A DNA stretch of 64,000 nt, from positions 55,165 to 119,164 of the forward strand of contig CBDCWW010000010.1 of the NCBI GenBank assembly GCA_965223585.1. Reading direction: 5' to 3'. The DNA is from Trueperaceae bacterium. Lineage in GTDB: Bacteria > Deinococcota > Deinococci > Deinococcales > Trueperaceae. Both the position numbers and the translations under genes were made by a program. Each line of letters starts with the position of its first letter. Within the stretch, counting starts at the first letter, position 1. A model generated the notes under the pieces. The model was not told the origin of the DNA, did no database searches, and saw only the letters and a list, made by a program, of their open reading frames with translations. Below, piece after piece: positions 4,869-28,293 of the stretch.

Positions 4869-5005
4869 ATTGTCAGAAAAAGTCCTACATAGCTTGTCAG
4901 AGTTTTACTGACTAGTTAGAAAAAGTGATCAACTAAACTAGAGTAGCCAGTAGTTCTAGGGGGCAAATGCTTTTAAATCTACTAATTTAAACAAGGAGGA
5001 AACTC
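4869..5005 (+). promoter_or_regulatory. Dispersed upstream cassette, copy 1 (upstream of the PAN-domain gene)
   Basis: TTGTCAGAAAAAGTCCTACATAGCTTGTCAGAGTTTTACTGACTAGT...CTAGAG..TTCTAG...TTTTAAATCT..AAGGAGG then ATG. It shares all blocks with seven other copies. Confidence 0.7.
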
Positions 5006-5608
5006 ATGAATAAATTAAATGGTAAAACCAAAACCTTAAGCATTCTCTCTATTCTATTATTTTGTTTCTTGGCCACAATAGCATATGGTCAAGAATTTAA
5101 ACTCCCTCGAGGTGGAGAACCCATGAGCAATATTGATCTTCCGGGATCAGATATTGCCCACTTCATATGGGGTGCTCCTGCAGCAGGAATGTTGGATCTT
5201 CGACAAAATCAATGTTCTGAAGCCTGTTGGCAAAACAAGGATTGTGTGGCATGGACTTATGTAAGGCCTAACACAATCCAAGGCCCAGAGGGTAACTGCT
5301 GGCTAAAAAACAGTGTGCCAGAAAAGGTAGTTAACAATTGTTGCGTATCTGGTACGATAGGTGAAGCAAACACAGATAGACTAGGTGGCGATTACACTCA
5401 TTTTGACAATATTATGGGGCTTGATGTAACTCCTCAGCTTTGCCAAACAACCTGTCAAAACGAGACTCAATGCAAAGCATGGACGTTTGTAAAACCGAAC
5501 ACAATCCAAGGTCCCAAAGGCGTGTGTTGGCTAAAAGACACTATACCACCACCAGTAGAGAGTAATTGCTGCATATCTGGTTATTTCGAAATACAGATCA
5601 TTAGATAA
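5006..5608 (+). CDS. Secreted protein with two PAN/Apple-like (PAN_4-type) domains
   Basis: Signal peptide present. Two repeats of C..C...C.AWT(Y/F)V.PNTIQGP.G.CWLK....CC(V/I)SG. Confidence 0.65.
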   Translation: MNKLNGKTKTLSILSILLFCFLATIAYGQEFKLPRGGEPMSNIDLPGSDIAHFIWGAPAAGMLDLRQNQCSEACWQNKDCVAWTYVRPNTIQGPEGNCWLKNSVPEKVVNNCCVSGTIGEANTDRLGGDYTHFDNIMGLDVTPQLCQTTCQNETQCKAWTFVKPNTIQGPKGVCWLKDTIPPPVESNCCISGYFEIQIIR

Positions 5609-5727: not shown

Positions 5728-6495
5728 ATGCGTATAAACAAATTGTTTTTTGTAGTTATCGTTGTTTTTTCTATAATGGGTGTATTATCCATGGGAGCAA
5801 TCGCTTCTTGGGGATTGGCTGGAGATATCCCTGTTGCAGGAGACTTTAATCGTGACGGGAGCGGTGATAGAGCAGTTTTCCGCCCTTCCAACAACACTTG
5901 GTACTTTGATTATGATTTTGATGATATCACAAACGACAGGATTAGCCCTTGGGCCTTAAGAGGCGATCTGCCAATTGCTGGAGACTTTGACAGAGATGGT
6001 CATCGAGATGATATTGCTGTTTTTCGTCCATCCAATCGCACTTGGTACTATGATTTTGATCATGATGGCACCACTGATGAGAGAGTTGATCCTTGGGCTA
6101 TAGATGGCGATCTGCCAATTGCAGGGGATTTTGATAGAGATGGCCAATATGATGATGTAGCAGTTTTTCGTTCATCTGATCGTACTTGGTACTATGATTT
6201 TGACCATGATGGCACCACTGATGAGAGATTTAGTCCTTGGGCTATAGATGGCGATTTGCCATTTGCAGGGGATTTTGATAGAGATGGTCAATACGATGAT
6301 GTAGGAGTTACTCGAGCGTCAAATACTACAAAGTATGTTGACCTTGACCACAACGGTTCTACCGATGGCACAGGATCAGCTAGTACAGGCGAAGAAAATT
6401 GTTACCCAGTAGTAATATCCAGATCTTGGGGAGATACCATAGATATCTTCTGTAACGGTACTTGGTGGGCTCCAGATCCAGATAGTCAGTATTGA
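5728..6495 (+). CDS. Secreted FG-GAP/VCBS-like repeat protein
   Basis: Signal peptide present. Four repeats of [40 protein letters not shown]. Confidence 0.65.
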
Positions 6496-6636: not shown

Positions 6637-7380
6637 ATGAAGATGTCTTTTATTTTTTTATTAGCAATTCTGACTACTGCTGTTTTTGCTCAATATGAGT
6701 ATGGTGTAGACCGACCCGGATCAGATATTAGGAGTTTTGCACTTCCTGAAAACGGCTCACCAGAAATGTGTAGAAGTGCTTGTGAAGGAGAAGCAGCTTG
6801 CAAGGCTTTCACCTTTGTTAGGAAAGGATACCAAGGTCCCAACCCTGTATGTTGGCTGAAGAGCGATCGTCCAAATCCTATTGATCACTTTTGCTGTGTG
6901 TCAGGAATAGTTTCTAGTTATGGTGATTTTGAGTACGGTACTAATCGTCCGGGTGGCGACTATAGAAACTTTGACCTTGCACAACCCAATCCTGAGGATT
7001 GCCAGATTGAATGTCAGAATGATGGTAGATGTCAGGCTTGGACTTTTGTGCATCCCGGTTACCAAGGACCCCAAGCACGGTGTTGGCTCAAAGATCAAGT
7101 ACCTGATGCTATAAGCAATGATTGTTGTGTGTCAGGAATAGTTTCTACTTACAGTGATATTGAGTATGGTATTGATCGTCAAGGTAGTGACTACAGAAAC
7201 TTTGACCTTGCGCAACCCAATCCCGAACTTTGCCAAATTGAATGTCAAAATGACAGTAGATGTCAAGCTTGGACTTTTGTAAATCCCGGTTATCAAGGAC
7301 CTCAAGCACGGTGTTGGCTTAAGGACCAAGTTCCTGATGCTACAAGAAATGATTGTTGTGTTTCTGGTATTGTTCCCTAG
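6637..7380 (+). CDS. Secreted protein with three PAN/Apple-like domains
   Basis: Signal peptide present. Three ~77-aa repeats end in CWLK....CCVSGIV. Repeats 2 and 3 are nearly identical at the nucleotide level (231-nt period). Confidence 0.65.
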   Translation: MKMSFIFLLAILTTAVFAQYEYGVDRPGSDIRSFALPENGSPEMCRSACEGEAACKAFTFVRKGYQGPNPVCWLKSDRPNPIDHFCCVSGIVSSYGDFEYGTNRPGGDYRNFDLAQPNPEDCQIECQNDGRCQAWTFVHPGYQGPQARCWLKDQVPDAISNDCCVSGIVSTYSDIEYGIDRQGSDYRNFDLAQPNPELCQIECQNDSRCQAWTFVNPGYQGPQARCWLKDQVPDATRNDCCVSGIVP

Positions 7381-10225: not shown

Positions 10226-11608
10226 ATGCCGATACTCAAAGAAATCACTAGAGAAATTTTAAGAGGAAATCTCGACTTTGAATCCTTCTCGCCTCCTAAT
10301 TTTTATCTTAATTGCAAATTCCGCTTTGCTCGCATGACTAGAGATGCAATCAAAGTTTATCAACTTAGGAAAGTGCGAAACATCATTAACTACGCATTAC
10401 GATATTCTGCTTTTTTTGCAGAACACTATCGCGACCTTGATGTTAATCGTGTGTGGTCATTACCGACAGTTAACAAGGAACTCATGATGAAAAACCTAAG
10501 TACTTACAACACAATTGGTTTGACTCGTCGAGAGATTCTAGATTTCTGCTTAGAAATCGAACGTAGCCGAGACTTCTCAAAGCGCCTTAAGGATGTCAAT
10601 ATCGGAATGTCATCTGGAACCAGTGGTAACAAGGGCGTTGAAATCACAACACGTCGTGAAGAAGCCTATTTGAAAACTGCCTTATTTGCGCGTTTTCCGC
10701 TACCCAAAGCAAAATTAAACCTAGCCTTTATCTTGCGGGTAAGCACGCCAGCCTTCCAGATTAACAGGTTTGGGCACCACCTAACCTACATTAACCAAAT
10801 GAACCCCCTAGAAGAAATATGCGCTCAGCTTGAGAGCCTAGAGCCCAATGTTATTTCAGCACCAACATCTATGTTACGTTTACTAGCAGATCAAGTGGAA
10901 CAGGGTAAACTATCTGTCAACCTAAAAGAAGTTGTTTCCTATGCAGAAGTTCTTTATCCTGAAGACAAAAACTATTTCAGTCAAGTTTTCAACTGTCCAG
11001 TTTTTGAAATCTATAAAGCAACTGAAGGTGCCATAGCATTATCCTGTCGTCTAGGGAGCCTGCATATCAATGAGGATCTTATTGCTGTAGAATTATTTGA
11101 TGAGAACGGAGCGCCTACCCAAGTTGGCAAACCCTCGCACCGTATGTTGGTCACTGATCTCCACAAAACATCGCAACCCATCCTACGCTATGAATTAGAT
11201 GATGTGCTAACGATAAGCCCTGAACCCTGTCCGTGTGGATCATCTTTCCGAGTAATACAGCAAATCCAAGGACGAGCTGATGATCTGTTTTGTGGTGTAC
11301 GCGCAGACAGTGGGCAAGATCAATTTATCTTCCCTGATTACATCCGCCGTGCCATTATCGTGTTGTCCGACACGATTAAGGATTATCAGGTCATTCAAAC
11401 AGACCTTGATGCAGTGAGCGTGCACCTCTTGGTTTCAGAAAAAGCTAACATAGACGAGCTTGCTGATTTAGTAAAGGCAAGCATTCAAAAGGTCTTTACA
11501 GCGCATGGTTGTTGCCCGCCAGAGGTCGAAGTCGACTTTTTACCCCCTATACCCAATGCTAATTCATCAAAGTTAATCCGCATTCATCGCGCCTTTGATA
11601 GGTCTTAA
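10226..11608 (+). CDS. Adenylate-forming enzyme, coenzyme F390 synthetase / phenylacetate-CoA ligase-like
   Basis: 460 aa with the P-loop-like adenylation motif GMSSGTSGNKG. Size and layout fit the F390-synthetase-related clade. Confidence 0.6.
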   Translation: MPILKEITREILRGNLDFESFSPPNFYLNCKFRFARMTRDAIKVYQLRKVRNIINYALRYSAFFAEHYRDLDVNRVWSLPTVNKELMMKNLSTYNTIGLTRREILDFCLEIERSRDFSKRLKDVNIGMSSGTSGNKGVEITTRREEAYLKTALFARFPLPKAKLNLAFILRVSTPAFQINRFGHHLTYINQMNPLEEICAQLESLEPNVISAPTSMLRLLADQVEQGKLSVNLKEVVSYAEVLYPEDKNYFSQVFNCPVFEIYKATEGAIALSCRLGSLHINEDLIAVELFDENGAPTQVGKPSHRMLVTDLHKTSQPILRYELDDVLTISPEPCPCGSSFRVIQQIQGRADDLFCGVRADSGQDQFIFPDYIRRAIIVLSDTIKDYQVIQTDLDAVSVHLLVSEKANIDELADLVKASIQKVFTAHGCCPPEVEVDFLPPIPNANSSKLIRIHRAFDRS

Positions 11609-11617
11609 GGAGGAACT

Positions 11618-12877
11618 ATGAAACGTCTCATGGCTTTAGACCTTGTGCGAGGTGTGGGTATTAGCTTAATGGTTTTTTTACACGCTACAACTTTCCACTA
11701 TGAAGCGATTACTAGTCTTGACTTTGATAACCCTCCTCTTATCATAACGGTGGTTGGTTTCTTGCTTATGTGGGCAGGGCTATTTGCCATTACTTCTGCT
11801 ACTGCTTACACTTTTTCTTCAGGTTTACGGTTGCATAATGGCACAATTTCAAAGGGGCAACTTCTCAGGAACTTTTTAATTGCTGGCATTTATTTGCTAG
11901 TCTTACATTATCTATACTTTTTGGCCTTAGCTCCACAGCTTCTTGATCTGGTTAATGGCGATCACCAATATGCTTTGCTACCGGGCTTACTAGTACAAGG
12001 TAGTTTCCCACTGTTATATCCAGATCGCATATACTATGCGACAACTCTTTCTATGATTGCTTGGAATCTACTGCTTATAGGTCCTATTATTTACTTGCTG
12101 TCACGGTATTTGCCAAAATTTGATCGGGTGGGTGCTTGGCTAGCTGGTCTCGGAACACTCGTTATGATTCTCTCGTTGGCACGCATTCCCCTTTATCCAC
12201 TAGCGCTCAAGGCTATAGATGAAGGTGACTTTCTTTCTTCTCTTTTTTTGGGGTTCCTTGTTAATAAAAACAACCCTATTTTGCCTTACCTTGCCTTTGG
12301 TTTGTTTGGTGGCTGGCTTGGCTTATCCTTAGTGAAAGGTGTATCGGCTCGAGCGTTACACCCCGTTGGCATAGCAGGTTTTCTCTGGTTAATAGCTGGA
12401 CTAGGAGGAATCTTGCTTTTGCCCACCACCATGTTAGAAAGAGAAATAGATCTATTTTGGTATTTCCTAACAGCCTTACAGCTTGGTTTATTCCTTATTA
12501 TAGTTGTCACTACACTTTTCCTAATAGATGTTAAAAGTTTTAGCCTAAAGGTGCTCGAGCCTTTGGCTTATCCTTTTCGTATTATGGGGTTGTCCTCTTT
12601 AACAGTGTTTCTACTTGAGACACCCCTTTCAGAATTACTCGCAAAGCTTGTTAGCATTTTCCTACCTAGTTGGCAACTTAGCCTAAACTGGTGCTTTGCT
12701 TTTGGTGCAGTGAATGCTTTGCTTTGGATTGCAATCATGATTGTTTGGTCAAGGTCTAATTTCAAGTACTCTGTTGAATGGCTCACCATGAGAATTTATG
12801 CAGAGCTTAAACGACCCTCCAATAAATTGCCAAAGCTCCAAAATTACCCTAAATCCTCTGAGAAAGCAAACCTTTAA
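11618..12877 (+). CDS. Polytopic membrane protein, DUF1624 / heparan-alpha-glucosaminide N-acetyltransferase-like
   Basis: N-terminal R..ALDLVRG....MV.LHA signature; about 10 TM segments. It starts 10 nt after the previous gene. Confidence 0.5.
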   Translation: MKRLMALDLVRGVGISLMVFLHATTFHYEAITSLDFDNPPLIITVVGFLLMWAGLFAITSATAYTFSSGLRLHNGTISKGQLLRNFLIAGIYLLVLHYLYFLALAPQLLDLVNGDHQYALLPGLLVQGSFPLLYPDRIYYATTLSMIAWNLLLIGPIIYLLSRYLPKFDRVGAWLAGLGTLVMILSLARIPLYPLALKAIDEGDFLSSLFLGFLVNKNNPILPYLAFGLFGGWLGLSLVKGVSARALHPVGIAGFLWLIAGLGGILLLPTTMLEREIDLFWYFLTALQLGLFLIIVVTTLFLIDVKSFSLKVLEPLAYPFRIMGLSSLTVFLLETPLSELLAKLVSIFLPSWQLSLNWCFAFGAVNALLWIAIMIVWSRSNFKYSVEWLTMRIYAELKRPSNKLPKLQNYPKSSEKANL

Positions 12878-12942
12878 GCCTAGCGCCCCTTGTAATATTG
12901 TGGCGATATTGCAGCAGCATGTGAGACAGTGAAAGGCAAACT

Positions 12943-14211
12943 TTGAACGTTCACAAAGCCTTCAACTGGGTTCAGCGACTCAACTTAAACCAAGCTAGAG
13001 CCACCAATTTGCGCTTAGCATGGCGTAATCTTTGGCGGTATCCAAGAAGAACTATTCTTCTAGTGGTAGTAGTTGCTTACACAACAGCCACCACTATTTT
13101 TTACTGGAGCTGTGTCGATGGTTACGTTGAGTCTGTCCTAGCATCCCATGCTCGCTATATCGCTGAACCTGTTCTCATAACGAAAAAACAATGGTTCTAT
13201 GATCGTGATCCTAGTCATACTCTGACCGATCTTACTTTTGTTAAGACCTTGCTCGAGCAAAAACCTATCAGGGCTGCTGCTCCTAGACTCGAGCTTCCTG
13301 TTCGTATTCGTTCAGCTTATGCTTCTGAAAGTCAGATTGCGCGCGGGGTTGACCCCTATGCAGAGCAAGCACTTAGCAACTTACCGCAAAAGGTGTTTGA
13401 GGGGCAGTGGCTAAGCGAACCCGGCAAAGTTCTCCTTGGACACAAGCTAGCAGAGCGCCTAGATGCTAGACTTGGCGAGCGAATAATCCTCGATACAGCT
13501 AGCTTGGAACAGCCACAGGCTCGAGCCCTTCGTGTAGTAGGCCTCATTAAAGCTGGCATTGATTTAGTTGACCAAAATGCCGTGCTAATTCATATTGATG
13601 ATGCAAGAGCCTTAACTGAGGTTTCGTCAGCAACAAGCATTGCTTTGATGGTTGCTCGAGGTAGTGAAACCGCAGTTGCAAAATTAATCACCCCCTTACT
13701 TCCCGAGGGTGTTGCAGCCTATGGTGTTTGGGACATTGTTGGTCCTATAAAGACTGACCTTATTGGTGCAAAACTCTCAGCTATTCCTGTTGGGGTACTG
13801 TTAAACATTTTTGCCATTATTACTGTGGTCAGCACAGTGTTGGTCAGTGTGTTTGAACGCAAAAAGGAATTTGCAGTAATGCAAGCACTTGGTTACTTAC
13901 CTCATCGCCTAGCAAATATGGTTGTACTCGAGTCACTCTTGGCCACATTTTTGGGCTGGCTCTTCGGTTTATCTTTAGGTTATGGGGTTGCTTGGATGTT
14001 TGCAACGCACAATATTTTGGGGCGTCTTTTTGCTGTTTCTGGTCGAGTTTGGCCTTCGACAGGGATAGCAGAAGAGTTGTACGCAGCTGTGCATCCCATT
14101 TACAGCCTTTATGCCCTCACTATTGTTATCTTAGTTGTTCTGTTTTGTATCCTTTTAACTGCTCCATATGTTCGAAATATTAAGATTTCTGAAGTTATTC
14201 GTAGCCTATGA
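12943..14211 (+). CDS. FtsX-family ABC permease, type A (MacB/LolC/E-like)
   Basis: LAWRNLWRYPRRT N-terminus, large periplasmic domain, C-terminal 3-TM FtsX block (ERKKEFAVMQALG). Paralog of 28731..29957. Confidence 0.8.
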   Translation: MNVHKAFNWVQRLNLNQARATNLRLAWRNLWRYPRRTILLVVVVAYTTATTIFYWSCVDGYVESVLASHARYIAEPVLITKKQWFYDRDPSHTLTDLTFVKTLLEQKPIRAAAPRLELPVRIRSAYASESQIARGVDPYAEQALSNLPQKVFEGQWLSEPGKVLLGHKLAERLDARLGERIILDTASLEQPQARALRVVGLIKAGIDLVDQNAVLIHIDDARALTEVSSATSIALMVARGSETAVAKLITPLLPEGVAAYGVWDIVGPIKTDLIGAKLSAIPVGVLLNIFAIITVVSTVLVSVFERKKEFAVMQALGYLPHRLANMVVLESLLATFLGWLFGLSLGYGVAWMFATHNILGRLFAVSGRVWPSTGIAEELYAAVHPIYSLYALTIVILVVLFCILLTAPYVRNIKISEVIRSL

Positions 14212-16063
14212 AAAATGCCTTTCTTACAACGTTAACTTGATTGGGCAACAATGATCCCACTAGCTTGGAAAAATATCTGGCGACAAAAACGACGCACTCT
14301 TTTTGCAGTTTTTGCTGTGGCAATTGCCTCCATCTTGACACCTTTACTCTTTGGCTTTTTAGCTGCGTGGCAAAATGGTATGTTTGAACATTTGACGGCC
14401 AGAACAGGTCACTTAATGGTGCATGTTGAGCATTGGCAGGATGTAAGGCAATTTGAAAAACTGCTTATTCCTAATGAGAATGTTGTAGCGAAGCGCATTA
14501 CAGAGACCTTAAACAATATTAAGAATGTTCAGGTGGCTACTTTATTGGAGGTTCCTGCCCTCTTAGCAGGGGAGTCAAAATTTCGAACTGTACAGCTTAC
14601 AGGCTTAGATCAACCCAGTGCCCTTGATGAGCCATTAAATCAAAGGTTGATTGCTGGACGCTTACCAAACCCCAATACCTTAGAAGAGATCGTTTTGGGA
14701 GACTCGTTAGCAGAAGCACTCGAGGTTAGTTTAGGGGATACAGTTTATACTTACTTAGCACAATCAATTGGTGAGCGAATAATCCTCGATACAGCTAGCT
14801 TGGAACAGCCACATGCTCGAGCCCTTCGTGTAGTAGGCCTCATTAAAGCTGGTATTGATCTAGTTGACCAAAATGCCGTGCTAATTCATATTGATGATGC
14901 GAGAGCCTTAACTGAGGTTTCGTCAGCAACAAGCATTGCTTTGATGGTTGCTCGAGGTAGTGAAAGCATAGCTGCAAAGTTAATCGCACCCTTACTTCCT
15001 GAGGGGGTTGCGGCTTACGGTGTTTGGGACATTGTTGGTCCTATAAAGACTGACCTTATTGGCGCAAAACTATCAGCCATTCCTGTTGGGGTACTGTTAA
15101 ACATTTTCGCCATCATTACCGTGGTTAGCACGGTGTTAGTTAGTGTGTTTGAACGCAAAAAGGAGTTTGCAGTAATGCAAGCACTTGGTTACTTACCTCA
15201 TCGCCTAGCAAATATGGTTGTACTCGAGTCACTCTTGGCCACGTTTTTGGGTTGGCTCTTCGGTTTATCTTTAGGGTATGGGGTTGCATGGATGTTTGCA
15301 ACGCACAATATTTTGGGGCGTCTTTTTGCTGTTTCAGGTCGAGTTTGGCCTTCGACAGGGATAGCAGAAGAGTTGTACGCAGCTGTGCATCCCATTTACA
15401 GTCTTTATGCCCTCACTATTGTTATCTTAGTTGTTCTGTTTTGTATCCTTTTAACTGCTCCATATGTTCGAAATATTAAGATTTCTGAAGTTATTCGTAG
15501 CCTATGAAAAACGCCTTTCTTACGACGTTAACTTGATTAGGCAAAAATGATCCCACTAGCTTGGAAAAATATCTGGCGGCAAAAACGACGCACTCTTTTT
15601 GCAGTTTTTGCTGTGGCAATTGCCTCCATCTTGACACCTTTACTCTTTGGCTTTTTAGCTGCGTGGCAAAATGGTATGTTTGAACATTTGACGGCCAGAA
15701 CAGGTCATTTAATGGTACATGTTGCACATTGGCAGGATATAAGACAATTCGAAAAACTGCTTATTCCCGATGAGAATGTTGTAGCGAAGCGCATTACAGA
15801 GACCTTAAATAATATTCAGAATGTTCAGGTGGCTACTTTATTGGAGGTTCCTGCGCTCTTAGCAGGGGAGTCAAGATTTCGAATTGTACAGCTTACAGGC
15901 TTAGATCAACCCAGTGCCCTTGATGAGCCATTAAATCAAAGGTTGATTGCTGGACGCTTACCAAACCCCAATACCTTAGAAGAGATCGTTTTGGGAGACT
16001 CGTTAGCAGAAGCTCTCGAGGTTAGTTTAGGGGATACAGTTTATACTTACCTAGCACAATCAA
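13472..16063. repeat. Exact tandem duplication, 2 x 1296 bp (13472-14767 and 14768-16063)
   Basis: The offset of 1296 nt was verified at both ends. The unit is the 3' half of permease A, the spacer, and the 5' half of permease B. The copies differ at a few percent of positions. Confidence 0.9.
14251..15507 (+). CDS. Chimeric FtsX permease (N-terminal half of type B fused in-frame to C-terminal half of type A)
   Basis: Residues 1-172 are about identical to 15547..16779 and the remainder is about identical to 12943..14211. The junction reads YTYLAQS|IGERIILD at nt ~14768. Confidence 0.8.
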   Translation: MIPLAWKNIWRQKRRTLFAVFAVAIASILTPLLFGFLAAWQNGMFEHLTARTGHLMVHVEHWQDVRQFEKLLIPNENVVAKRITETLNNIKNVQVATLLEVPALLAGESKFRTVQLTGLDQPSALDEPLNQRLIAGRLPNPNTLEEIVLGDSLAEALEVSLGDTVYTYLAQSIGERIILDTASLEQPHARALRVVGLIKAGIDLVDQNAVLIHIDDARALTEVSSATSIALMVARGSESIAAKLIAPLLPEGVAAYGVWDIVGPIKTDLIGAKLSAIPVGVLLNIFAIITVVSTVLVSVFERKKEFAVMQALGYLPHRLANMVVLESLLATFLGWLFGLSLGYGVAWMFATHNILGRLFAVSGRVWPSTGIAEELYAAVHPIYSLYALTIVILVVLFCILLTAPYVRNIKISEVIRSL

Positions 16064-16779
16064 AAGGAACAGGAGCGGCTGCTTTTAAGGTTGTTGGTTT
16101 ACTCAGTATCACCGAGACCTCAACTGAAGCTAGAAGCGCATACATATCCCTCTTAGCAGCACAGGATTTAGCTGCACCTAATGAAGCTACTGCCTTCAAA
16201 CTCTTTTTCACAGACTTGAATAGAATGGACCATAAGCAGTTATCTGAGCTTCAACAAAAACTTGATGACCATCTAGCCTCAGACCTTTCTGTGACAAATT
16301 GGCAGCAAGCTAATCCAGATCTTGCAACTGTTCTTGATTTACTCGAGCCCGTTTTTCTCTTTTTATCTATTATCTTTTATGGTCTTGCTGGTTTGCTTGT
16401 GGTCAACACAATTTACTTGAGCTTAATTGAGCGCGTTCGTGAGTTCGGTCTTATGCTTGCCCTAGGGGCTGGTCGCACAAAAATCATAAAACTTGTTTTT
16501 ATGGAAACAGCTTTTGTAGTTTTTATAGGAGCAATAATAGGTGGAATTATTTGTTGGCTAATCCTCTTTCGTTTGAGCCAAGGTTTCAGCCTACCTTTTG
16601 GTCTTGCCCAGATTTATGCCCAGTTTGGTTTACCCACAGTACTCTATGCTAATCTTTCGTTAGACAAAATCCTCATGAACTTGTCTTTTGTTGTTGCTAC
16701 TGCTTTGTTGGCAGCTTTATGGCCTGCTTGGGTTTCTGGTCGACTCGAGCCTGCTAATGCCATGCGTTTTACTGGCTAA
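15547..16779 (+). CDS. FtsX-family ABC permease, type B
   Basis: LAWKNIWRQKRRT N-terminus and C-terminal FtsX block (ERVREFGLMLALG). Paralog of 30074..31300. Confidence 0.8.
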   Translation: MIPLAWKNIWRQKRRTLFAVFAVAIASILTPLLFGFLAAWQNGMFEHLTARTGHLMVHVAHWQDIRQFEKLLIPDENVVAKRITETLNNIQNVQVATLLEVPALLAGESRFRIVQLTGLDQPSALDEPLNQRLIAGRLPNPNTLEEIVLGDSLAEALEVSLGDTVYTYLAQSKGTGAAAFKVVGLLSITETSTEARSAYISLLAAQDLAAPNEATAFKLFFTDLNRMDHKQLSELQQKLDDHLASDLSVTNWQQANPDLATVLDLLEPVFLFLSIIFYGLAGLLVVNTIYLSLIERVREFGLMLALGAGRTKIIKLVFMETAFVVFIGAIIGGIICWLILFRLSQGFSLPFGLAQIYAQFGLPTVLYANLSLDKILMNLSFVVATALLAALWPAWVSGRLEPANAMRFTG

Positions 16780-17060
16780 AGCCTCAAACTATCCTCAATA
16801 ACATATTGTTATAAAAATTTAATTACCTGTTTATTCAATTTAGCACTTCTTTAACATAGCATTTAGTCCAAGGAGAGTGTATGAAAATCATTTTTTTTGT
16901 TTTTATAATTACTTTTGATCCACCAAAGTGGAAAGATGCAGTTTTAGAACTCGCAACCCCACAAAAAACTCTTCAAATCACGATATGGTATTTCTGACAA
17001 TCACAAAATTCAAACTGTAACTATTTTGCTAATTAAGCAGTTTGCTTCAGGAGAACATCA

Positions 17061-17777
17061 ATGTCAATTGTAGAACTTAACAACGTTAAAAAGACTTACC
17101 CATTAGGAAAAACAGAAGTACAAGCTGTCAAAGGTGTGTCCTTTGAAATCAAAAAGGGTGATTTTGTCTCCATTGCAGGTCCATCAGGGTCTGGTAAATC
17201 AACAATTCTGAACATGATAGGTTGCATAGACACCCCTACATCAGGAAGCGTTTATATAAATGGTGTCGAAACTACAGACCTGTCTGATAAAAAAATTACT
17301 AGGCTCAGACACCAAGTTCTGGGGTTTATATTTCAATCATTTAATTTAATACCTGTACTAAATGTCTTTGAAAATATAGAGTTCCCCTTGCTGTTAGGTA
17401 AAAGTAGCCTGTCTAAGAAAGATAAAAATAGTTGGATTAACTATCTTATTGAAGAAGTTGGTTTAACTAAATGGAAAAGCCATAAACCTAATGAGTTATC
17501 AGGTGGGCAGAGACAGCGAGTTGCTATTGCAAGGGCGCTAGCAACAAAACCAAGCATTGTTATGGCTGATGAACCTACTGCAAATCTTGATTCCACTACA
17601 GGTGAAGCCATTATTAATCTGATGAAGAAGATGAATCGGGAACTTGAAACAACATTTATCTTTAGTACTCATGACCCTGAAATTGTCAAAATTGCAGATC
17701 AAGTCATTAAATTGCAAGATGGTTTGATTGTAGAAAACTATAAGGCAGATATAGCATTGCAAGAGGCAGTTGCATGA
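17061..17777 (+). CDS. ABC transporter ATP-binding protein (MacB/LolD-type)
   Basis: Walker [10 protein letters not shown], signature LSGGQRQRVAIARAL, Walker B VMADEPT. ATGA overlap with the next permease. Confidence 0.9.
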   Translation: MSIVELNNVKKTYPLGKTEVQAVKGVSFEIKKGDFVSIAGPSGSGKSTILNMIGCIDTPTSGSVYINGVETTDLSDKKITRLRHQVLGFIFQSFNLIPVLNVFENIEFPLLLGKSSLSKKDKNSWINYLIEEVGLTKWKSHKPNELSGGQRQRVAIARALATKPSIVMADEPTANLDSTTGEAIINLMKKMNRELETTFIFSTHDPEIVKIADQVIKLQDGLIVENYKADIALQEAVA

Positions 17778-19225
17778 TCCTGCTAAAAATTGCTTTTCGT
17801 AACTTACGTGAGCATAGAACCAAGACGCTTATTATTGGAACCTTAATTGCCTTGGGGATTGCCTTTCTTGTGGTAGGGAGCTCTGTTATGGAGACTATCA
17901 CAAAAGGAATGAGAGATACCTACAGCGAAAGCTTCACAGGTGATTTGATTCTAAGGAATGCTACTGATGAAGATGTTTTTTTTATAAGTGGGTTTAGAGG
18001 AACTACACCACCACTGGAAAACTATGCTGAAATTGTTGCCTATTTAGAGCAGCAGGATTCTGTAGAAGATTTTACTCCACTTGTAACAGGATCTGCCTCT
18101 ATTAATAATGAAGAAGAAAGCCTTTCATTTGCTTTTTTGTGGGGGATTCAACCAACAGATTATCGTGAGATGTTCTCAGACACCTTTGTTATAACTGCTG
18201 GCGAAGACCTAAAAGATAATAAAGAAGGTATTGTACTCTCACAACAAGTGGTAGATGATGTTTTTAAAGAAACTGCACAACAGCTTAAGCCCGGAGACAC
18301 AGTTTTACTTTCAGGCCAAAATGACGCCACTGGGACGAAAATACGGGAAGTTACCATTCAAGGAATTGGTCATTTTAAAAACAATGCAGGATTTCTGGGC
18401 AATGTTTCATTTGTAGATATAAGTACCTTACGCACTCTCTATGGTCTGACTGCTGTAAAAGAAGCTCTCAGCAATGAAACAGTTACAGATATTTCCTTTG
18501 CAGAAGATTTACTTTTTGGTGGGGGCTCTTTGGTTACTGATGTAACTGAAAACACAGCTAACAATACAAACTCTTCAATTGACTTTGAGAATATTCTTGG
18601 TGATACCTCAATAAGGGATCAGTATTTGCTTTTAGATAATGATGCATGGCATTTTATTTTGCTAAAAGTTGCTGAAGGTTATTCCACAGCTGATTTAAGT
18701 AATCAATTATCGTCAAACAAAGAAATTTTGGGCGATGAATTGTTAGTAGAAAACTGGCGTTGGGGAGCTGGATTTCCTGCAGAAATAGCCTATAGCATTC
18801 GAAATATCTTATATGGTGCGATATTGGTTATTGCCATAGTTGCAGTTATTATCATTATGAATACACTGGTTATTTCAGTTACAGAAAGAATTCCTGAAAT
18901 AGGTACTGTAAGAGCAATCGGAGGACAACGCTTTTTTGTAAGGGCAATGATTACTCTTGAAGTCCTCATGATTACCATAGTTTTTGGCCTTATTGGCATT
19001 GCAATTGGCATTGCAATAATCGGAGTGCTTAACACCATAGGACTCACAGCGTCAAATGTATTCTTCCAGATACTGTTTGGTGGTGCTACTCTAAAACCTA
19101 TTTTGTCAGTTACATCACTTATAAACTCCCTATTCATAGTAGTTTTCATTGGCATTCTAGCAAGCCTTTATCCAGTTTCTGTTGCATTAGGCATTACGCC
19201 AGTGCAAGCGATGCAGAAGAAGTAA
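17774..19225 (+). CDS. FtsX-family ABC permease (large periplasmic domain)
   Basis: 483 aa with FRNLREHRTKT at the N-terminus and C-terminal ERIPEIGTVRAIGG plus 3 TM segments. Confidence 0.8.
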   Translation: MILLKIAFRNLREHRTKTLIIGTLIALGIAFLVVGSSVMETITKGMRDTYSESFTGDLILRNATDEDVFFISGFRGTTPPLENYAEIVAYLEQQDSVEDFTPLVTGSASINNEEESLSFAFLWGIQPTDYREMFSDTFVITAGEDLKDNKEGIVLSQQVVDDVFKETAQQLKPGDTVLLSGQNDATGTKIREVTIQGIGHFKNNAGFLGNVSFVDISTLRTLYGLTAVKEALSNETVTDISFAEDLLFGGGSLVTDVTENTANNTNSSIDFENILGDTSIRDQYLLLDNDAWHFILLKVAEGYSTADLSNQLSSNKEILGDELLVENWRWGAGFPAEIAYSIRNILYGAILVIAIVAVIIIMNTLVISVTERIPEIGTVRAIGGQRFFVRAMITLEVLMITIVFGLIGIAIGIAIIGVLNTIGLTASNVFFQILFGGATLKPILSVTSLINSLFIVVFIGILASLYPVSVALGITPVQAMQKK

Positions 19226-19242
19226 GGAGAAGATTTATAATT

Positions 19243-20580
19243 ATGCAGTCAATAAGAATTGCCTTTAAGAATGTTTTAGGACAAATGAATAGAACACTGC
19301 TTTTAGGAGGAGCAATTGCTTTTGGTTTCTTTGTATTTACTATTATAAATGGTTTTACCAACGGTTTAATACGCACCGTTGAAGAAAATTTTTCCAACAC
19401 CTTTGGAGGACACATTTATGTGTCTGGCACAGAGGTAAGCAGCAGAGGAAACGAGATATTTATAATCAGAAAGCCTCAAACTATATACGAAGCCTTACCT
19501 ATAATAGAAGATCAAGTTCTTTCTTACAATACACGTTCATCTGCAAACACAAGTCTGATTTTTGGGAATGCCGAAGAAAATCAAAACTTGATTGGAGTTG
19601 ATTTCAATCAGGAGAAGGAATTTTTAGATAGCCTTAATTTTGTTGAGGGTAATGCCAATGATTTTCTAGCTAATGAGTTAGGTGTACTCTTGCCAGAAGA
19701 TACTTTTGAGGACCTTGGTATTGAAGTAGGTGAGAGTGTAATTATCAAAACAACTACTATCAACGGTCAACAAAATGTTGGAGATGGAATAGTTGTTGGC
19801 AGCATTGTAAGCGAAGAGAGTTTTGGAACCTCATCAGGCTATATCCACATTGCTACGCTTAACAATTTGCTGGATATGAGTTCAGATCAATTTCAAACAC
19901 TTAACATATATCTAAAAGACATCGGTGTTATTGAAAGTGCTACAGATGTTTTACATAAGGAACTTTCATCTCTTGCAGAAACTGAACCTAGAGATAGTGA
20001 TGATGGTGAAGACCGTATGCAAAACCACATAATGCGTATGATGGGTTTCAGTCAGTTGAACAGCGTGGATGAATCTGAAAGATGGTCTGGGACTAAATTT
20101 AGTTTATCTACCCTCAATGACAGGATGGATAACGTTATGGCACTGATAAGTATCATGGACATCATTGGTTTAGTTATCTTCTTTGTCATACTTAGCATCA
20201 TTATGGTGGGTGTCATGAATTCCTATCGGATGGTTATGCTGGAAAGAACAGCAGAAATCGGAACCATGCGAGCTATGGGCATACAAAAGGGAGGAGTTCG
20301 CGATATATTTATTGGCGAAGCCTTCTTCATCGCTCTAGGAGGAGCAATTGTTGGTTTAGTGTTATCCTTTCTCTTCATGGCTGGAGTAAGCCTATATGAA
20401 TTTAGCTCGAGTCATTTCACACTCTTTCTGCGCCAAGGACACTTACAGTTTGCCATAGCAGCTTCTGAAATAGTTGGCAATATCCTTACACTTTGTCTAG
20501 TAAGTATTGCCTCAGTTTACCTGCCTGCACGGGCTGCTGCGAATCTAAAGCCAGCAGAGGCCCTTCGGACAAGTTACTAG
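19243..20580 (+). CDS. FtsX-family ABC permease
   Basis: 445 aa with C-terminal ERTAEIGTMRAMG plus 3 TM segments, ending in PAEALR. Confidence 0.8.
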   Translation: MQSIRIAFKNVLGQMNRTLLLGGAIAFGFFVFTIINGFTNGLIRTVEENFSNTFGGHIYVSGTEVSSRGNEIFIIRKPQTIYEALPIIEDQVLSYNTRSSANTSLIFGNAEENQNLIGVDFNQEKEFLDSLNFVEGNANDFLANELGVLLPEDTFEDLGIEVGESVIIKTTTINGQQNVGDGIVVGSIVSEESFGTSSGYIHIATLNNLLDMSSDQFQTLNIYLKDIGVIESATDVLHKELSSLAETEPRDSDDGEDRMQNHIMRMMGFSQLNSVDESERWSGTKFSLSTLNDRMDNVMALISIMDIIGLVIFFVILSIIMVGVMNSYRMVMLERTAEIGTMRAMGIQKGGVRDIFIGEAFFIALGGAIVGLVLSFLFMAGVSLYEFSSSHFTLFLRQGHLQFAIAASEIVGNILTLCLVSIASVYLPARAAANLKPAEALRTSY

Positions 20581-20597
20581 TTTTTAAGGATTTAGCA

Positions 20598-21344
20598 ATG
20601 AAACGAATTATTATTACACTTATAGGAATAGGGTGTTTTTTTTGCGTAGCAAACTCACAAAGTCAAGATTTTGAGCAAATTCTACAACTTATTGACACTC
20701 GCAGCAATTTCCAAGGTGACCTTGCTACAACAGTATCTTTAGAAATAAAAGACCCAGACGAAGGCGATGATTCAAGAACAGCACAGATGTTTCGCAGAGA
20801 TGCTGAAGATACTTTTCTCATACTTATCCAGAAACCTGCTGTTGAATTGGGACAGGGGTATTTACTAATAGATAATAGCCTGTGGTTTTATGATCCCGAA
20901 AGTCGTCGATTCACTCATACATCTATGAGTGAGAGCTTTGAAAATAGTGGTGCCAGACATTCTGATTTTGGTAGTTCTACTCTAGCTGAAGATTATGATG
21001 TGCTCTCAACAACAGAAGCAAAATTAGGTAACTTCGATGTTTGGGTGCTCGAGCTAGAGGCAGTGCATTCAGAGGTGACTTATCCTTTTAGAACAATTTA
21101 TGTCACTAAAAACAACAATCTTCTCTTAAAAAGTGACGATTATAGTCTGACAAAGCGTTTGTTAAGAACATCTTATTATCCAAGCTATGCAAAAGCAGGT
21201 GATAGTTACATTGCAGAAAAAATGATATTTGTTGATGCTTTAGTAGAAAATAAATCTACCAGCATCACCCTATCTAACATCTCCACCGCAAAAATTCCAG
21301 ATTCCGTATTTACTAAGGCATATGTAGAACGTGTCAATAGATAG
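20598..21344 (+). CDS. LolA-like outer membrane lipoprotein-sorting protein family
   Basis: Start moved to the ATG at 20598 (signal peptide MKRIIITLIGIGCFFCVANS). Central LWFYDPESRR motif and a size typical of the LolA_like family. Confidence 0.6.
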   Translation: MKRIIITLIGIGCFFCVANSQSQDFEQILQLIDTRSNFQGDLATTVSLEIKDPDEGDDSRTAQMFRRDAEDTFLILIQKPAVELGQGYLLIDNSLWFYDPESRRFTHTSMSESFENSGARHSDFGSSTLAEDYDVLSTTEAKLGNFDVWVLELEAVHSEVTYPFRTIYVTKNNNLLLKSDDYSLTKRLLRTSYYPSYAKAGDSYIAEKMIFVDALVENKSTSITLSNISTAKIPDSVFTKAYVERVNR

Positions 21345-21353
21345 TAAATCTTT

Positions 21354-22652
21354 ATGAAAGTCATTTTTTTTATGAGCATATTGCTTTTTGTCTTCGCATG
21401 GTCGCAGGAAAGCAGTTTAGACGAGGAGCTTTTTGGTGGAGGAGACTCAACTGGAGATGAGGAATCTATTGTTTCTGAAGTGGAAGATGACCCGGAATCT
21501 AATCTTGCCGATGAACTTTTGGCAAGCGAGAAAATAGCTATCGGCGGTACTCTTACTATAGATGGTGAGGTTAGCCTCGATCTCGATTCCGATAGTGAAG
21601 ATTCCCTTTCGAGTGGTTTCACAGACTTCAAAGCTCGCTTATACCTTGATGCTAGACCAAATAGTGACCTGAGAGCATTTGTTAAAGGTGATATTGTTTA
21701 TGACACTTCAGATGGAGTGTCATTTGACCTAAGAGAAATGTTTGCTGATGTAGGTATTAGTGATACTGTTTTCTTGAGAGCAGGTAAGCAAACCATCAAT
21801 TGGGGGGTGGGGTTCTTTTTTAGCCCTGCCAACATTATTAATCTAGAAAACATAGACCCTGAAGACCCTAAAGAAGAATTAGCAGGCCCAGTTGCTTTTA
21901 AAGCACAATTACCTTTAGGAACTAGTAATTTATCGGGCTATCTACTTTTAGATGAAATTGAAGAGGATAATCCTGTTGCATTTGCTTCACGTTATGAGTT
22001 TTTACTAGATTCAATGGAAATTACTGTAGGAGGAGTTTATCAATATGATAATCCTTGGTCAGTTATGGTGACTGGCACACGTAATTTTGGTGATATTGGC
22101 TTTTTTGCTGAAGCTGTACTTGAAGGGAATAGTAATAAGGTTTTTTTGGTTGAAGACTCGAGCAAACCTTCAGGAATAGGCACAGAAACAAGACCTGATA
22201 AATTGTTCCTCTCTGGTACAATTGGTGGTAACTATAGCTATACTACAGATGACGATATGTTTTCAGTTGCACTCACTGCTCAATACTTTTACAATGGTTT
22301 AGGATACTCTGATTCCAGTCTCTATACTAAAAATCCAGCTGCCTTAACCACACTTATAGAACAGGGCGCTTTAAGTTTTAGTGATCTTCGAGAGCGAGGT
22401 CAGCATTACGGTGCTGCAAGAGTAAGTTTTAACAATATTGTAGACACAGATTTGACCCCGTCATTACTATGGATAGGCAATTTGAACGATGGATCAGGCA
22501 TAGTTGATATTAGTTTGCGATACAGCGGTATAGATAACCTAACTCCAAGTATTAGCTATAAATATAACTATGGTGTAGAAGGATCAGAATACAGTAATAG
22601 TGGTTCTGGACACAGCCTAACTGCGGGTCTTGCCATAAATGCAGTTTTTTAA
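21354..22652 (+). CDS. Putative outer-membrane beta-barrel protein
   Basis: Signal peptide, acidic N-terminal linker, alternating beta-strand-like pattern, and a C-terminal aromatic residue (..AINAVF). Confidence 0.45.
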   Translation: MKVIFFMSILLFVFAWSQESSLDEELFGGGDSTGDEESIVSEVEDDPESNLADELLASEKIAIGGTLTIDGEVSLDLDSDSEDSLSSGFTDFKARLYLDARPNSDLRAFVKGDIVYDTSDGVSFDLREMFADVGISDTVFLRAGKQTINWGVGFFFSPANIINLENIDPEDPKEELAGPVAFKAQLPLGTSNLSGYLLLDEIEEDNPVAFASRYEFLLDSMEITVGGVYQYDNPWSVMVTGTRNFGDIGFFAEAVLEGNSNKVFLVEDSSKPSGIGTETRPDKLFLSGTIGGNYSYTTDDDMFSVALTAQYFYNGLGYSDSSLYTKNPAALTTLIEQGALSFSDLRERGQHYGAARVSFNNIVDTDLTPSLLWIGNLNDGSGIVDISLRYSGIDNLTPSISYKYNYGVEGSEYSNSGSGHSLTAGLAINAVF

Positions 22653-22667
22653 GGTGAATATAAAAAT

Positions 22668-23360
22668 ATGAAAGCCAGCGTTCTAGTTATAGAAGATGAG
22701 GTTGAGTTGGGTGACCTCATCGCTATGTATTTAGAAAAAGAAGGTATAGAGGTGCGTACCTGTACTAGTGCTGAAGAAGCTGAAGAATTACTTTCACTTG
22801 CCGAGTTTGACCTTATAACATTAGACATCAATTTACCGGGTAAGGATGGGTTCGAATTCCTACAAAATTTTCGTCGTGAACACCATGTGCCAGTAATGAT
22901 TATCTCTGCTCGAGAAGCAGATGAAGACATCATTTTGGGTCTAGGAATTGGTGCAGATGAATTTGTAAGTAAGCCTTTTGCACCTCGAGTCCTAGTTGCT
23001 AGAATCAGAGCTATGCTTAGGCGGCATAAACAACCTGCCAACAAAAGAAGTATGATAAAGTTCCTTAGCTACACTTTAGATGTAGATGCTTTTCTTTTAA
23101 AGAAAGATGATGAAAGAATCACTCTCTCTGGCAAGGAGTTTGAGGTACTAAGTTATCTTGCTCAACATGCTGGTCGCACCTTTAGTAGTGATGAGATTTA
23201 CGAGGCAGTCTGGGGTAACAGTTATGGTGACTTAACCGCTGTTGGTGTATATATTCAGCGTCTTCGGAAAAAAATAGAGCCTAACCCAAAACATCCCACA
23301 GTTATTGAAACAGTTTTTGGAAAAGGTTACAGATTTAACGAAGACCTTCTTCAGAGGTAA
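22668..23360 (+). CDS. OmpR-family response regulator
   Basis: Receiver domain (DLITLDINLPGKDG) plus a winged-helix output domain (VIETVFGKGYRF). Confidence 0.9.
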   Translation: MKASVLVIEDEVELGDLIAMYLEKEGIEVRTCTSAEEAEELLSLAEFDLITLDINLPGKDGFEFLQNFRREHHVPVMIISAREADEDIILGLGIGADEFVSKPFAPRVLVARIRAMLRRHKQPANKRSMIKFLSYTLDVDAFLLKKDDERITLSGKEFEVLSYLAQHAGRTFSSDEIYEAVWGNSYGDLTAVGVYIQRLRKKIEPNPKHPTVIETVFGKGYRFNEDLLQR

Positions 23361-23362
23361 GA

Positions 23363-24718
23363 GTGAACCTAAAAACGCAATTCACACTTTTAATAGTAGG
23401 GATTTTCATAATTCCTTTATTAGTTGCATCAGGAATTATGGCTTTTCAGTTTTGGTCTATAAGGAATTCAGGGAATGGCTTTCGTGTGTTTCCAACAATA
23501 ATTCAAATGATTAAAAATACTTCTCCTGAAGATTTTCTAAATGGCAAATTTGATGCGTTGTCTGTACCAGAAAGTATGGGGCTAACAGTAGTAGATAAAA
23601 CAAACAATACTATAATTTTTTCAACCCAAGCCACATCTGATACTTTGTTAAGCAAGGAAGAATACTTGCTATCTCGAGCATTGGCAGACGGACTAGAAGA
23701 TTTTAGCTTGTTTAATATTTCAACTGACCAGAAGCAATTTCAATATTTGATTAGCTATCCTAGAGTTTTTAGAGGTTCTACCAACATTCATCCTCAAGCA
23801 TATATTTTAGCCATTTTTACTACCCTTCCCTTTATCATAATGCTTTTTCTAGCTATTGTTTTTTCACTGCTTATCATTAAAAGTATCAATAATAAAATAA
23901 GGAACTTGGAATATGCCACTACTCAAATCTCGTCTGGAAATCTTGGGTTTGAAATCCAAAGCAAAGGAAGTGATCAATTTGCTTCACTTGCTCATTCCCT
24001 TGATGAAATGCGTAAACAATTGAAAGATGAATATGTGCGAAGGTCTCGGTTTCTAATGAGCATTTCGCATGATCTTAAAACTCCTTTAGCATCAATCGAT
24101 GGATATATTGATGCTCTATTAGAAGGTTTTGGAGATAGTGAAAGTAAGCGAGATAAATTCCTTAAAATTATGAAGGAAAAATCTGTAACTCTTAATAAGC
24201 GGATTTCATCCCTTATAGATTTTGCCAAACTTACAACTTCTGAGTGGAATTTGAAATTGAAATCTACTTCTCTGAAGGGGTTTGTAGAAGATTTTATAGA
24301 TCTGTACACTACCGAAGCAGAAATGCAGGGCTTCCAAATTGATAGAAAAATATCAATTCCAAAAGAAGTTGAATTCCCTATGGATGAGCAACTAATATCT
24401 CGTGCTCTGGAAAATATTCTAAGCAATGCAATGAAGTTCTCAGATGAGAGAAAGCATATTGTTTTTAGTTTAGTGCAGACAAATGAAGCAGAATTACAAA
24501 TACAGATTCAAAATTATGGTCTAGGTATAGCAAAAGAACATCTGGATCTAGTTTTTGAGCCTTTTTTCCGAGAATCCTCAGGCAGAAATGAACTTGGAAC
24601 TGGTTTGGGTCTTGCCTCAGCGAAGTATATCATTGAGGCTCATGGCTGGAGTATTTCGGCCTCATCAGAGCTAGGAGAAATTACCAGCTTTATAATTCGT
24701 ATTCCAAGATTGATGTGA
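23363..24718 (+). CDS. Sensor histidine kinase (2 TM, HAMP, HisKA, HATPase_c)
   Basis: H-box SHDLKTPL, N-box NAMKF, G-boxes GLGIA and GTGLGL. The GTG start lies 3 nt after the regulator's stop. Confidence 0.85.
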   Translation: MNLKTQFTLLIVGIFIIPLLVASGIMAFQFWSIRNSGNGFRVFPTIIQMIKNTSPEDFLNGKFDALSVPESMGLTVVDKTNNTIIFSTQATSDTLLSKEEYLLSRALADGLEDFSLFNISTDQKQFQYLISYPRVFRGSTNIHPQAYILAIFTTLPFIIMLFLAIVFSLLIIKSINNKIRNLEYATTQISSGNLGFEIQSKGSDQFASLAHSLDEMRKQLKDEYVRRSRFLMSISHDLKTPLASIDGYIDALLEGFGDSESKRDKFLKIMKEKSVTLNKRISSLIDFAKLTTSEWNLKLKSTSLKGFVEDFIDLYTTEAEMQGFQIDRKISIPKEVEFPMDEQLISRALENILSNAMKFSDERKHIVFSLVQTNEAELQIQIQNYGLGIAKEHLDLVFEPFFRESSGRNELGTGLGLASAKYIIEAHGWSISASSELGEITSFIIRIPRLM

Positions 24719-24809
24719 TTTTATTTTATACGGTGGAAACTTTGGTAGTTTTGTAGGAGTAATCTTGAGGTTCAGGTAGTGGCCTCAAGTACTGTCAGAT
24801 CGTTTCTTC

Positions 24810-25343: not shown

Positions 25344-25379
25344 AGGTCCATATGAGATGAGATTGAAGTAATGGGATAG

Positions 25380-25775: not shown

Positions 25776-26096
25776 ATATTCAATATAGCAATAAATCCCC
25801 TGCACTAATTCATCTCTATAAACTTTATTTCAAATATAATGCAGCATTAAGAATGCGTGAGTGCTCTGCGAACAAACTGGGATTCTTGCCCAACTCTTAA
25901 TTTACTTATTCACAGGTAGAAGGAACAGTGTAAGTAAAAATTACAGTCATAAACTACAATTAACATAGTAATGAAATATAAAGCAACAAAGCCTCTAGTA
26001 AAACTTAGTTCTTCCAAAAATCCTGTAACTTAGGGGAATGTATCTAAAAGTGATCTTCCCTGAGCTTAGTAAGGTTAAGTAAATGGATAAAATCAC

Positions 26097-27601: not shown

Positions 27602-27613
27602 AAACCACCTAAA

Positions 27614-27800: not shown

Positions 27801-27878
27801 TTTATTGAGTACCTATGACCACTGCCAACTGTTATAACGTCAAGTTGATTAACCCAATCTGGTACGGCGTCAAGATTC

Positions 27879-28207: not shown

Positions 28208-28293
28208 GTTAAGTAGAAGAACCAAGAAGAAGGTAGTCTGGCTTTTGCTCTCAAAGGTGCAGTGTTGATAAATAACTGGCGGAGATAGTCTAT

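Follow-up and report, generated by a model that had tools for sequence, protein, structure and literature searches.

The tandem paralogs of the lpl cluster in Staphylococcus aureus are described as rearranging through a "unit of evolution" that consists of the 3' part of an open reading frame (ORF) together with the intergenic region and with the 5' part of the following ORF (Tsuru & Kobayashi 2008, PMC2568036). Here we describe a comparable arrangement in a stretch of 64,000 nucleotides from a Trueperaceae bacterium (NCBI GenBank assembly GCA_965223585.1, contig CBDCWW010000010.1, positions 55,165 to 119,164), hereafter the window, in which a 1296-bp head-to-tail repeat places a hybrid gene between two FtsX-type permease genes, called A and B below. 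As in lpl, the duplicated unit runs from the 3' part of one gene through a spacer into the 5' part of the following paralog, so that unequal exchange combines N- and C-terminal halves anew in one ORF and leaves the spacer linked, and recombination both within and between genomes is invoked. However, the exchanges in lpl are homologous, with aligned positions joined within a conserved central region, and are repeated across many strains, whereas A and B share no nucleotide homology, their join is illegitimate and about 12 codons out of register, and it is seen in only one genome.

Genes fused at the join point are a classic concept in the study of bacterial tandem duplications, and the locus is a real example of this known process, a chimeric gene born from a tandem duplication. 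In transformation-triggered merodiploidy, exogenous DNA can trigger duplications of 100–900 kb between repeats of the insertion sequence type, and these duplications are unstable (Johnston et al. 2013, PMC3784515). The Trueperaceae locus resembles such merodiploids in its head-to-tail duplication with a novel join point that is able to fuse two genes and so supply raw material for new ones. It differs from them in that the duplication spans only 1.3 kb, was formed without repeats, and consists of copies that have already diverged by 3–7%.

The encoded proteins are closest in layout to the type VII ATP-binding cassette (ABC) systems LolCDE and MacB, as A, B and the hybrid all have four transmembrane (TM) helices, a large periplasmic domain between TM1 and TM2, and an FtsX C-terminal domain. 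The pairing of A-like and B-like genes in Deinococcota with one LolD-like ATPase and a LolA-like gene likewise recalls the set of LolC, LolE, LolD and LolA. Unlike the Lol genes, however, the permease genes described here have an adenylate-forming enzyme and a membrane protein as cassette neighbors rather than LolD and LolA, and no adjacent ATPase is found in three related cassettes (loci L001, L002 and L003). LolF is an evolved single permease and not a recombinational hybrid. Both LolF and LolDF are listed in a table of a review that also describes the domain layout of MacB, in which the two Porter halves flank a Sabre subdomain, together with its mechanotransmission mechanism (PMC5985334).

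The duplicated unit and its hybrid permease gene

Permease gene A (12943–14211) encodes 422 amino acids (aa) and permease gene B (15547–16779) encodes 410 aa; both are LolC/E-like and lie on the plus strand, as do the unit copies, spacers and hybrid gene described below. The segments 13472–14767 (copy 1) and 14768–16063 (copy 2) are head-to-tail copies; their direct alignment over 1296 bp is free of gaps and contains 55 mismatches, an identity of 95.8%. Just outside either end of the repeat, identity is only 14%–44% per 50 bp, which is the background level, and the boundaries are therefore exact. An initial annotation of this DNA had proposed an exact 1296-bp tandem duplication, and this stands for the period, the absence of gaps and the sharp ends, but not for the sequence itself. 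The repeat was not reported by Tandem Repeats Finder, whose longest period is 500, and a separate repeat scan showed only its first 300 nt; its full extent was obtained from the direct comparison of the copies. The sequence contains no Ns, and the minus-strand ORFs within the unit are short (65–78 aa).

Each unit is made up of 740 nt from the 3' end of A, 39 nt of spacer and 517 nt from the 5' end of a B-type gene, giving the order A, hybrid, B with two spacers that the initial annotation had laid out. The first spacer (14212–14250) runs from the stop of A to the start of the hybrid and differs at 4 positions from the second (15508–15546); L001 has this 39-nt spacer between its A and B genes, too. 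Because each spacer copy precedes a B-type start, the hybrid inherits the translation start context of B within the same operon. The hybrid gene (14251–15507) is an intact ORF of 418 aa, made up of B residues 1–172, a new Ile173, and A residues 178–422. B supplies TM1 and roughly two thirds of the periplasmic domain; the remaining periplasmic part, TM2–4 and the coupling helix come from A.

At the novel junction (14767/14768), B position 517 is followed directly by A position 530. Comparison of the parental and junction sequences, with the breakpoint in A at ...GCTAGAC|TTGGCGAG and that in B at ...CAATCAA|AAGGAACA, shows 0 bp in common at the breakpoint, so that the TTGG microhomology suggested earlier is not present. 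The 30-mer across the junction is CTTAGCACAATCAATTGGTGAGCGAATAAT, and the peptide across it reads YTYLAQS-I-GERIILD (junction peptide LPNPNTLEEIVLGDSLAEALEVSLGDTVYTYLAQSIGER), with the frame kept, as had been noted, through a newly formed Ile codon (A|TT, 14767–14769). At the nucleotide level A and B show no homology except for chance 9–12-mers. We therefore rejected homologous unequal crossing-over between A and B, since there is no homology to guide it and the join is out of register.

This lack of register leaves a trace in the protein. The B segment LGDTVYTYLAQS aligns with LGERIILDTASL of A, and the hybrid holds both, which results in about 12 surplus residues where about 11 had been estimated. 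When A, B and the hybrid are aligned, the surplus B-derived segment LGDTVYTYLAQS occupies hybrid residues 161–172 (14731–14766, plus strand), and the A-derived IGERIILD that immediately follows doubles its structural role.

The family assignments of the three proteins were examined with Pfam and NCBIfam models. The FtsX C-terminal domain (PF02687, cutoff 25.5 bits) exceeds the gathering score in all three, with 52.9 bits for A, 52.9 bits for the hybrid and 48.2 bits for B. The MacB periplasmic core domain (MacB_PCD, PF12704, cutoff 27 bits) is found in A at 36.8 bits and reaches 26.2 bits in B, just under the cutoff. With the equivalog model TIGR02212 (lolCE), the permeases reach 70.5, 64.5 and 94.2 bits, far short of the cutoff of 362, and they are therefore distant relatives of LolC and LolE and not orthologs. 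A and B are paralogs with about 21%–25% identity. Because A-like and B-like genes are paired across Deinococcota, we consider A and B to be the two halves of a LolCE-like heterodimer, presumably working as a LolC/LolE-like pair of type VII (MacB-fold) ABC permeases, with mechanotransmission of the LolC/LolE/MacB type.

An AlphaFold2 model of the hybrid, built from a 23-sequence alignment, has a mean predicted local distance difference test score (pLDDT) of 83.6 and a predicted template modeling score (pTM) of 0.71; the model of the parent B has a pLDDT of 83.5, that is, the same overall confidence. The hybrid model contains four long TM or stalk helices (residues 13–52, 263–301, 316–352, and 382–407) and an alpha/beta periplasmic domain (residues 53–262) between TM1 and TM2. 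Only residues 164–172, the B-derived DTVYTYLAQ, fall below a pLDDT of 50 and are modeled without secondary structure. Residues 164–168 form a confident strand in the B model (block pLDDT about 92), and in the hybrid this strand is built instead by the A-derived residues 176–181. The predicted fold shows nothing obviously broken, and the 12 surplus B-derived residues appear to be looped out. When the model was searched with Foldseek, the top match was LolE (9rld_E, E = 4e-20, TM score 0.76), and LolC, MacB, YbbP, and HrtB were matched as well. Judging from the order of secondary-structure elements relative to the MacB layout, the junction may fall inside the Sabre-like part of the periplasmic domain.

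The unduplicated state is preserved in relatives, which the initial annotation had proposed to survey. The B ortholog of L001 (protein P0004, 96% protein identity) lies on the 5.16-Mb contig CBDCVN010000013.1 of a Trueperaceae metagenome-assembled genome (MAG), and the A ortholog lies at L001:8693–9961. This L001/L004 genome shares about 93% DNA identity with the window across the syntenic segment 10161–16816, and its gene order is ligase, membrane protein, A, 39-nt spacer, and B, with no duplication. The same four-gene cassette is found in L002 and L003 at about 70% nucleotide identity, again with A, spacer and B unduplicated. As L001/L004, L002, and L003 all carry the unduplicated order, the duplication is derived in the lineage of the window. 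We rejected the loss of an ancestral duplication in L001, as L002 and L003 are unduplicated too. The collapse of an ancestral duplication in L001 was rejected as well, since collapse predicts a left part resembling copy 1 and L001 resembles copy 2 there.

The hybrid itself is unusual, as had been supposed. Its sole identical database match in the protein search was the protein of the window itself, and no second hybrid was found among 33 related loci (L002–L034) or through protein and metagenome searches. A scan of species representatives of the Genome Taxonomy Database (GTDB) gave 52 loci, none with a hybrid; a scan of Joint Genome Institute (JGI) metagenomes gave no close relative, and exact-sequence look-ups with the hybrid, A and B gave no match. 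In Deinococcota at large, the wider family has the order A-like, LolA-like, B-like, and ATPase (about 25 loci), and no third gene of hybrid type is present at any of them.

Divergence between the two copies

The differences between the copies were polarized with L001, and the unit was divided into its first ~400 bp (block 1, to 13870 in copy 1) and the remaining ~0.9 kb (block 2). Their density is uneven, at 7.0% in the first 400 bp against 3.0% thereafter (p = 0.0015). Up to 13870, copy 1, which is here the intact A gene, has 26 of the changes and copy 2 has 2, in contrast with 14 and 12 after that position (Fisher p = 0.0015). In block 1, the number of synonymous substitutions per synonymous site (dS) is 0.26 between the copies, 0.24 between copy 1 and L001, and 0.03 between copy 2 and L001. 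Copy 1 is ~7.5% diverged from the A gene of L001 over the first ~400 bp, whereas the corresponding tract of copy 2 (14768–15165, plus strand) is 99% identical to it, with 4 differences in 398 bp (Poisson p at most 8e-4).

A sliding comparison over 6.6 kb identified 14768–15267 as the sole stretch with 99% identity to L001, the rest ranging from 88% to 97.5%. The L001-like tract begins no more than 46 bp from the junction, and the sequence to its left is of the resident type, with about 95% identity to L001. When block 1 is rooted with L002 and L003, the tree is (copy 1,(copy 2, L001)); at the 20 informative sites the outgroups side with copy 1 at 12 and with copy 2 and L001 at 8. In-place divergence alone cannot produce this tree. 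At least one recombination event between lineages is therefore needed, and such recombination has reshaped the copies. We also rejected a molecular-clock date for the duplication, as the divergence is mosaic.

Block 2 behaves differently. Its tree is star-like, with 14 changes on the copy 1 branch, 12 on that of copy 2 and 21 on that of L001, and its dS is 0.089 between the copies and 0.114 and 0.111 from copy 1 and copy 2 to L001, respectively. Here copy 2 shares 21 states with copy 1 against L001. Changes on copy 1 and copy 2 are interspersed at random in a runs test (12 runs, p = 0.30), a result that cannot separate in-place from allelic divergence and was not used as evidence. Private variants that are absent from L001 occur in both copies.

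The differences are also far from even over codon positions. As the initial annotation had observed, divergence of a few percent lies mostly in third positions, and among the 55 differences, 38 of the 51 in coding sequence are at such positions (binomial p = 2e-9). The A-derived part carries 34 nucleotide differences and 5 amino-acid differences, close to the roughly 35 and 5 counted before, and the ratio of nonsynonymous to synonymous rates between the copies (omega, Nei-Gojobori), for which a calculation had been proposed, is 0.065 for A-derived sequence and 0.155 for B-derived sequence. To focus on the hybrid, we considered its private changes, namely the copy-1-derived changes within 14251–14767 and the copy-2-derived changes within 14768–15507. 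These amount to 12 synonymous and 4 nonsynonymous changes (omega about 0.1; binomial p = 3e-5 against neutrality), or 10 and 4 in block 2 alone (p = 2e-4). The omega of the hybrid halves is 0 and about 0.2, which is not above that of the A, B, and L001 branches.

This bias among the private changes is consistent with purifying selection and may suggest it, although imported functional alleles could give the same pattern. An in-place origin of the private changes would mean that constraint has acted on the hybrid over a dS of about 0.04–0.05. The earlier proposal that synonymous bias reflects purifying selection on both copies, and hence their maintenance, is thus borne out with respect to the strength of the bias and weakened as an argument, as not all differences arose in place after the duplication. 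Because the locus recombines with related functional alleles, the bias is not proof of selection on the hybrid.

Origin and possible retention of the hybrid

We consider it quite probable that the locus represents a real, derived and illegitimate tandem duplication, and that recombination has since reshaped its copies. According to this history, the ancestral locus would have consisted of the F390-synthetase-related ligase, the polytopic membrane protein, permease A, and permease B. A non-homologous join of B position 517 to A position 530, most simply an unequal illegitimate exchange between sister chromosomes without microhomology, would then have doubled 1296 bp of resident sequence and left an in-frame hybrid gene in the middle. 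In the second event of this simplest history, a ~0.4-kb homologous patch from an L001-like strain may have entered copy 2 at its beginning; a patch of this kind would naturally reach no further than the junction, beyond which an unduplicated donor offers no homology. An equivalent view would place the resident allele in copy 1 and the foreign allele in copy 2. The hybrid could then act as a third LolE-like subunit, with its surplus 12 residues looped out of the periplasmic domain.

It is possible to read the same differences as the product of an old duplication, with all 55 of them arising in place and both copies, the hybrid included, being kept by purifying selection as a functional third permease. 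The low omega values in the A-derived (0.065) and B-derived (0.155) parts agree with such a course, as do the intact, indel-free ORF and the balanced changes in block 2 (14 against 12), but the drop in difference density from 7.0% to 3.0% does not. In block 1 it is contradicted outright, as 26 of 28 polarized changes fall on copy 1, copy 2 is 99% L001-like and the tree joins copy 2 with L001. We thus regard an entirely in-place origin as improbable. An assembly artefact, in which reads of two co-occurring relatives were misjoined and the second copy exists in no cell, is more improbable still. Mixed related strains are plausible, given that L001 derives from a metagenome assembly (ERZ25072999) that also holds L002, and part of copy 2 is 99% L001-like. 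However, most of copy 2 is not, both copies have private variants that L001 lacks, and the sequence contains no Ns. The junction offers 0 bp of common sequence, such that a k-mer or overlap graph would need a read containing it, and it would be a remarkable coincidence if a random chimeric read had joined two molecules of the same 2.6-kb locus from different strains with both orientation and frame matching.

As a third possibility, the duplication may be of recent date and a product of DNA uptake from a close relative. A donor fragment beginning within A would have paired by homology in B, with an illegitimate join at its opposite end, either by homology-facilitated illegitimate recombination or by transformation-triggered unequal exchange, so that copy 2 would be donor sequence, copy 1 resident sequence, all differences allelic and the hybrid a neutral by-product on which selection has yet to act. 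The L001-like tract abuts the junction with resident-type sequence (about 95%) to its left, as this course would predict, although a later homologous patch would look alike. The synonymous bias is what would be expected of allelic differences between functional genes, and the number of events is the same as in the two-event history. On the other hand, past about 15200 the special closeness of copy 2 to L001 is gone, with a dS of 0.111 as against 0.114 for copy 1, so the donor itself would have to be a mosaic. A variant seen in an assembly consensus must also be at high frequency in its population, which is harder to reconcile with a very young neutral variant. Moreover, homology-facilitated illegitimate recombination typically involves 3–8 bp of microhomology, and the junction has 0 bp. 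Tandem duplications by transformation are known in Streptococcus pneumoniae (PMC3784515), and intermolecular recombination after horizontal transfer is part of a model for the rearrangement of tandem paralog clusters (PMC2568036). On balance, an origin during uptake is possible but somewhat doubtful.

With respect to the fate of the hybrid in the duplication and patch history, our best guess, held at a little under even confidence, is that the duplication is not brand new and that the hybrid is at least tolerated and probably constrained. Several points weigh against this. The structure is that of the assembly consensus, and only one genome carries the hybrid, so that its persistence in a population is conjectural. 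The synonymous bias would also be expected if other strains had supplied the differing sites through their functional A and B alleles; the hybrid might then be very recent and neutral. Runs of full identity between the copies, the longest of which reach 129 bp, should permit RecA-mediated collapse of the repeat, which argues against long survival without selection. No MacB_PCD match is found for the hybrid in Pfam at E <= 0.001, and AlphaFold2, which is insensitive to destabilization in hybrids, does not measure stability.

A stronger proposal can be made only tentatively. The hybrid may be a selected, working third subunit, a natural domain swap within the periplasmic domain and TM bundle of a LolCE-like heterodimer, in which B contributes TM1 and the greater share of the Sabre-like part, and A all that remains, including TM2–4 and the coupling helix. 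By pairing with A, with B or with itself, it could confer a new specificity, and it would have been kept for a dS of about 0.09 in spite of the collapsible 1.3-kb repeats. If the hybrid is functional, the locus is a clean natural case of a transporter subunit born by non-homologous tandem duplication, with both parents adjacent and the ancestral state in a sister genome. Functionality would also imply that paralogous type VII ABC permeases of about 21%–25% identity can exchange TM1 together with most of the periplasmic domain, and accept a 12-residue insertion besides, which would be useful for engineering LolCE/MacB chimeras. If, instead, the hybrid is only a young by-product, synonymous bias between tandem copies is not readable as selection on a new gene where related strains recombine.

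The surrounding cassette and other features of the window

The permease genes belong to a four-gene cassette on the plus strand (10226–16779 in the window; L001:5976–11233, L002:5984–11221, and L003:853–6096). Its first gene (10226–11608, 460 aa) encodes an F390-synthetase-related adenylate-forming enzyme (NCBIfam TIGR02304, 309.9 bits against a cutoff of 251.9) and is syntenic upstream of A and B in L001, L002, and L003. The second gene (11618–12877, 419 aa), syntenic in the same three loci, encodes a polytopic membrane protein with a weak, sub-threshold match to Acyl_transf_3 (19.4 bits against 31). The cassette was found only in a few Trueperaceae-like genomes, none of which has an adjacent ATPase, and to our knowledge, no system that combines an adenylate-forming enzyme and a LolCE-like pair has been described.

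Synteny with L001 stops 37 nt past the stop of B (16816; L001:11270). Beyond this point L001 has helix-turn-helix (HTH) genes, a HigB-type toxin-antitoxin pair and a DDE transposase, whereas the window has an ATPase operon. Because synteny breaks here with different gene content, the right flank of the cassette is a rearrangement hotspot. The window ATPase gene (17061–17777) lies 280 bp downstream of B and beyond the break, overlaps the next permease gene and scores 242 bits with the LolD model (cutoff 308).

Three separate FtsX-type ABC systems are located within 20 kb (12943–32155), the first being that of A, the hybrid and B. The second has its own operon, with the ATPase, permeases of 483 aa and 445 aa, and a LolA-like protein (17061–21344), followed by an OmpR-type regulator and a histidine kinase (22668–24718). 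The third is a canonical A-like, B-like, and ATPase system (28731–32155), to which homologs in other Deinococcota add a LolA-like gene.

Promoter and terminator scans remained at chance level, and no Rfam or tRNA match was found in the window. An intergenic element of ~95 nt is present in eight copies, six on the plus strand (4869–4958, 41728–41817, 47069–47158, 48403–48492, 56250–56339, and 58219–58308) and two on the minus strand (40125–40189 and 53320–53391). Its consensus, TATGTCAGAAAAAGTCCTACATAnnTTGTCAGAGTTTTACTGATTAGTTAG...CTAGAATAGGATAGCTCTAGGTAGCAAATG, contains two TGTCAGA motifs about 25 nt apart, and most copies lie just upstream of unrelated genes (for a PAN-domain protein, an Rce1-like protease, a short-chain dehydrogenase/reductase (SDR) and two unknowns). 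The element has no Rfam match and no supported RNA structure, and it is probably a shared promoter or operator or a small mobile element. Two of its copies are extended by a ~300-nt direct repeat (48403–48718 and 58219–58525; 86%–91% identical and 9.8 kb apart) upstream of an Rfam-less, ORF-poor stretch.

The G+C content of the window ranges from about 36% to 49%, with a mean of about 41%, and the closest genomes are labeled Trueperaceae. The type species of Trueperaceae has a high G+C content. The genome of the window thus appears to belong to a low-GC branch known only from MAGs.

Finally, we note in-frame coding tandem repeats at 929–2094, 5249–5581, 5865–6296, and 6891–7352. A repeat with a period of ~174 nt lies in the gene for a 671-aa FG-GAP repeat protein (75–2090), and the ORFs at 5728–6495 and 6637–7380 contain three repeats of 144 nt and two of 231 nt, respectively.

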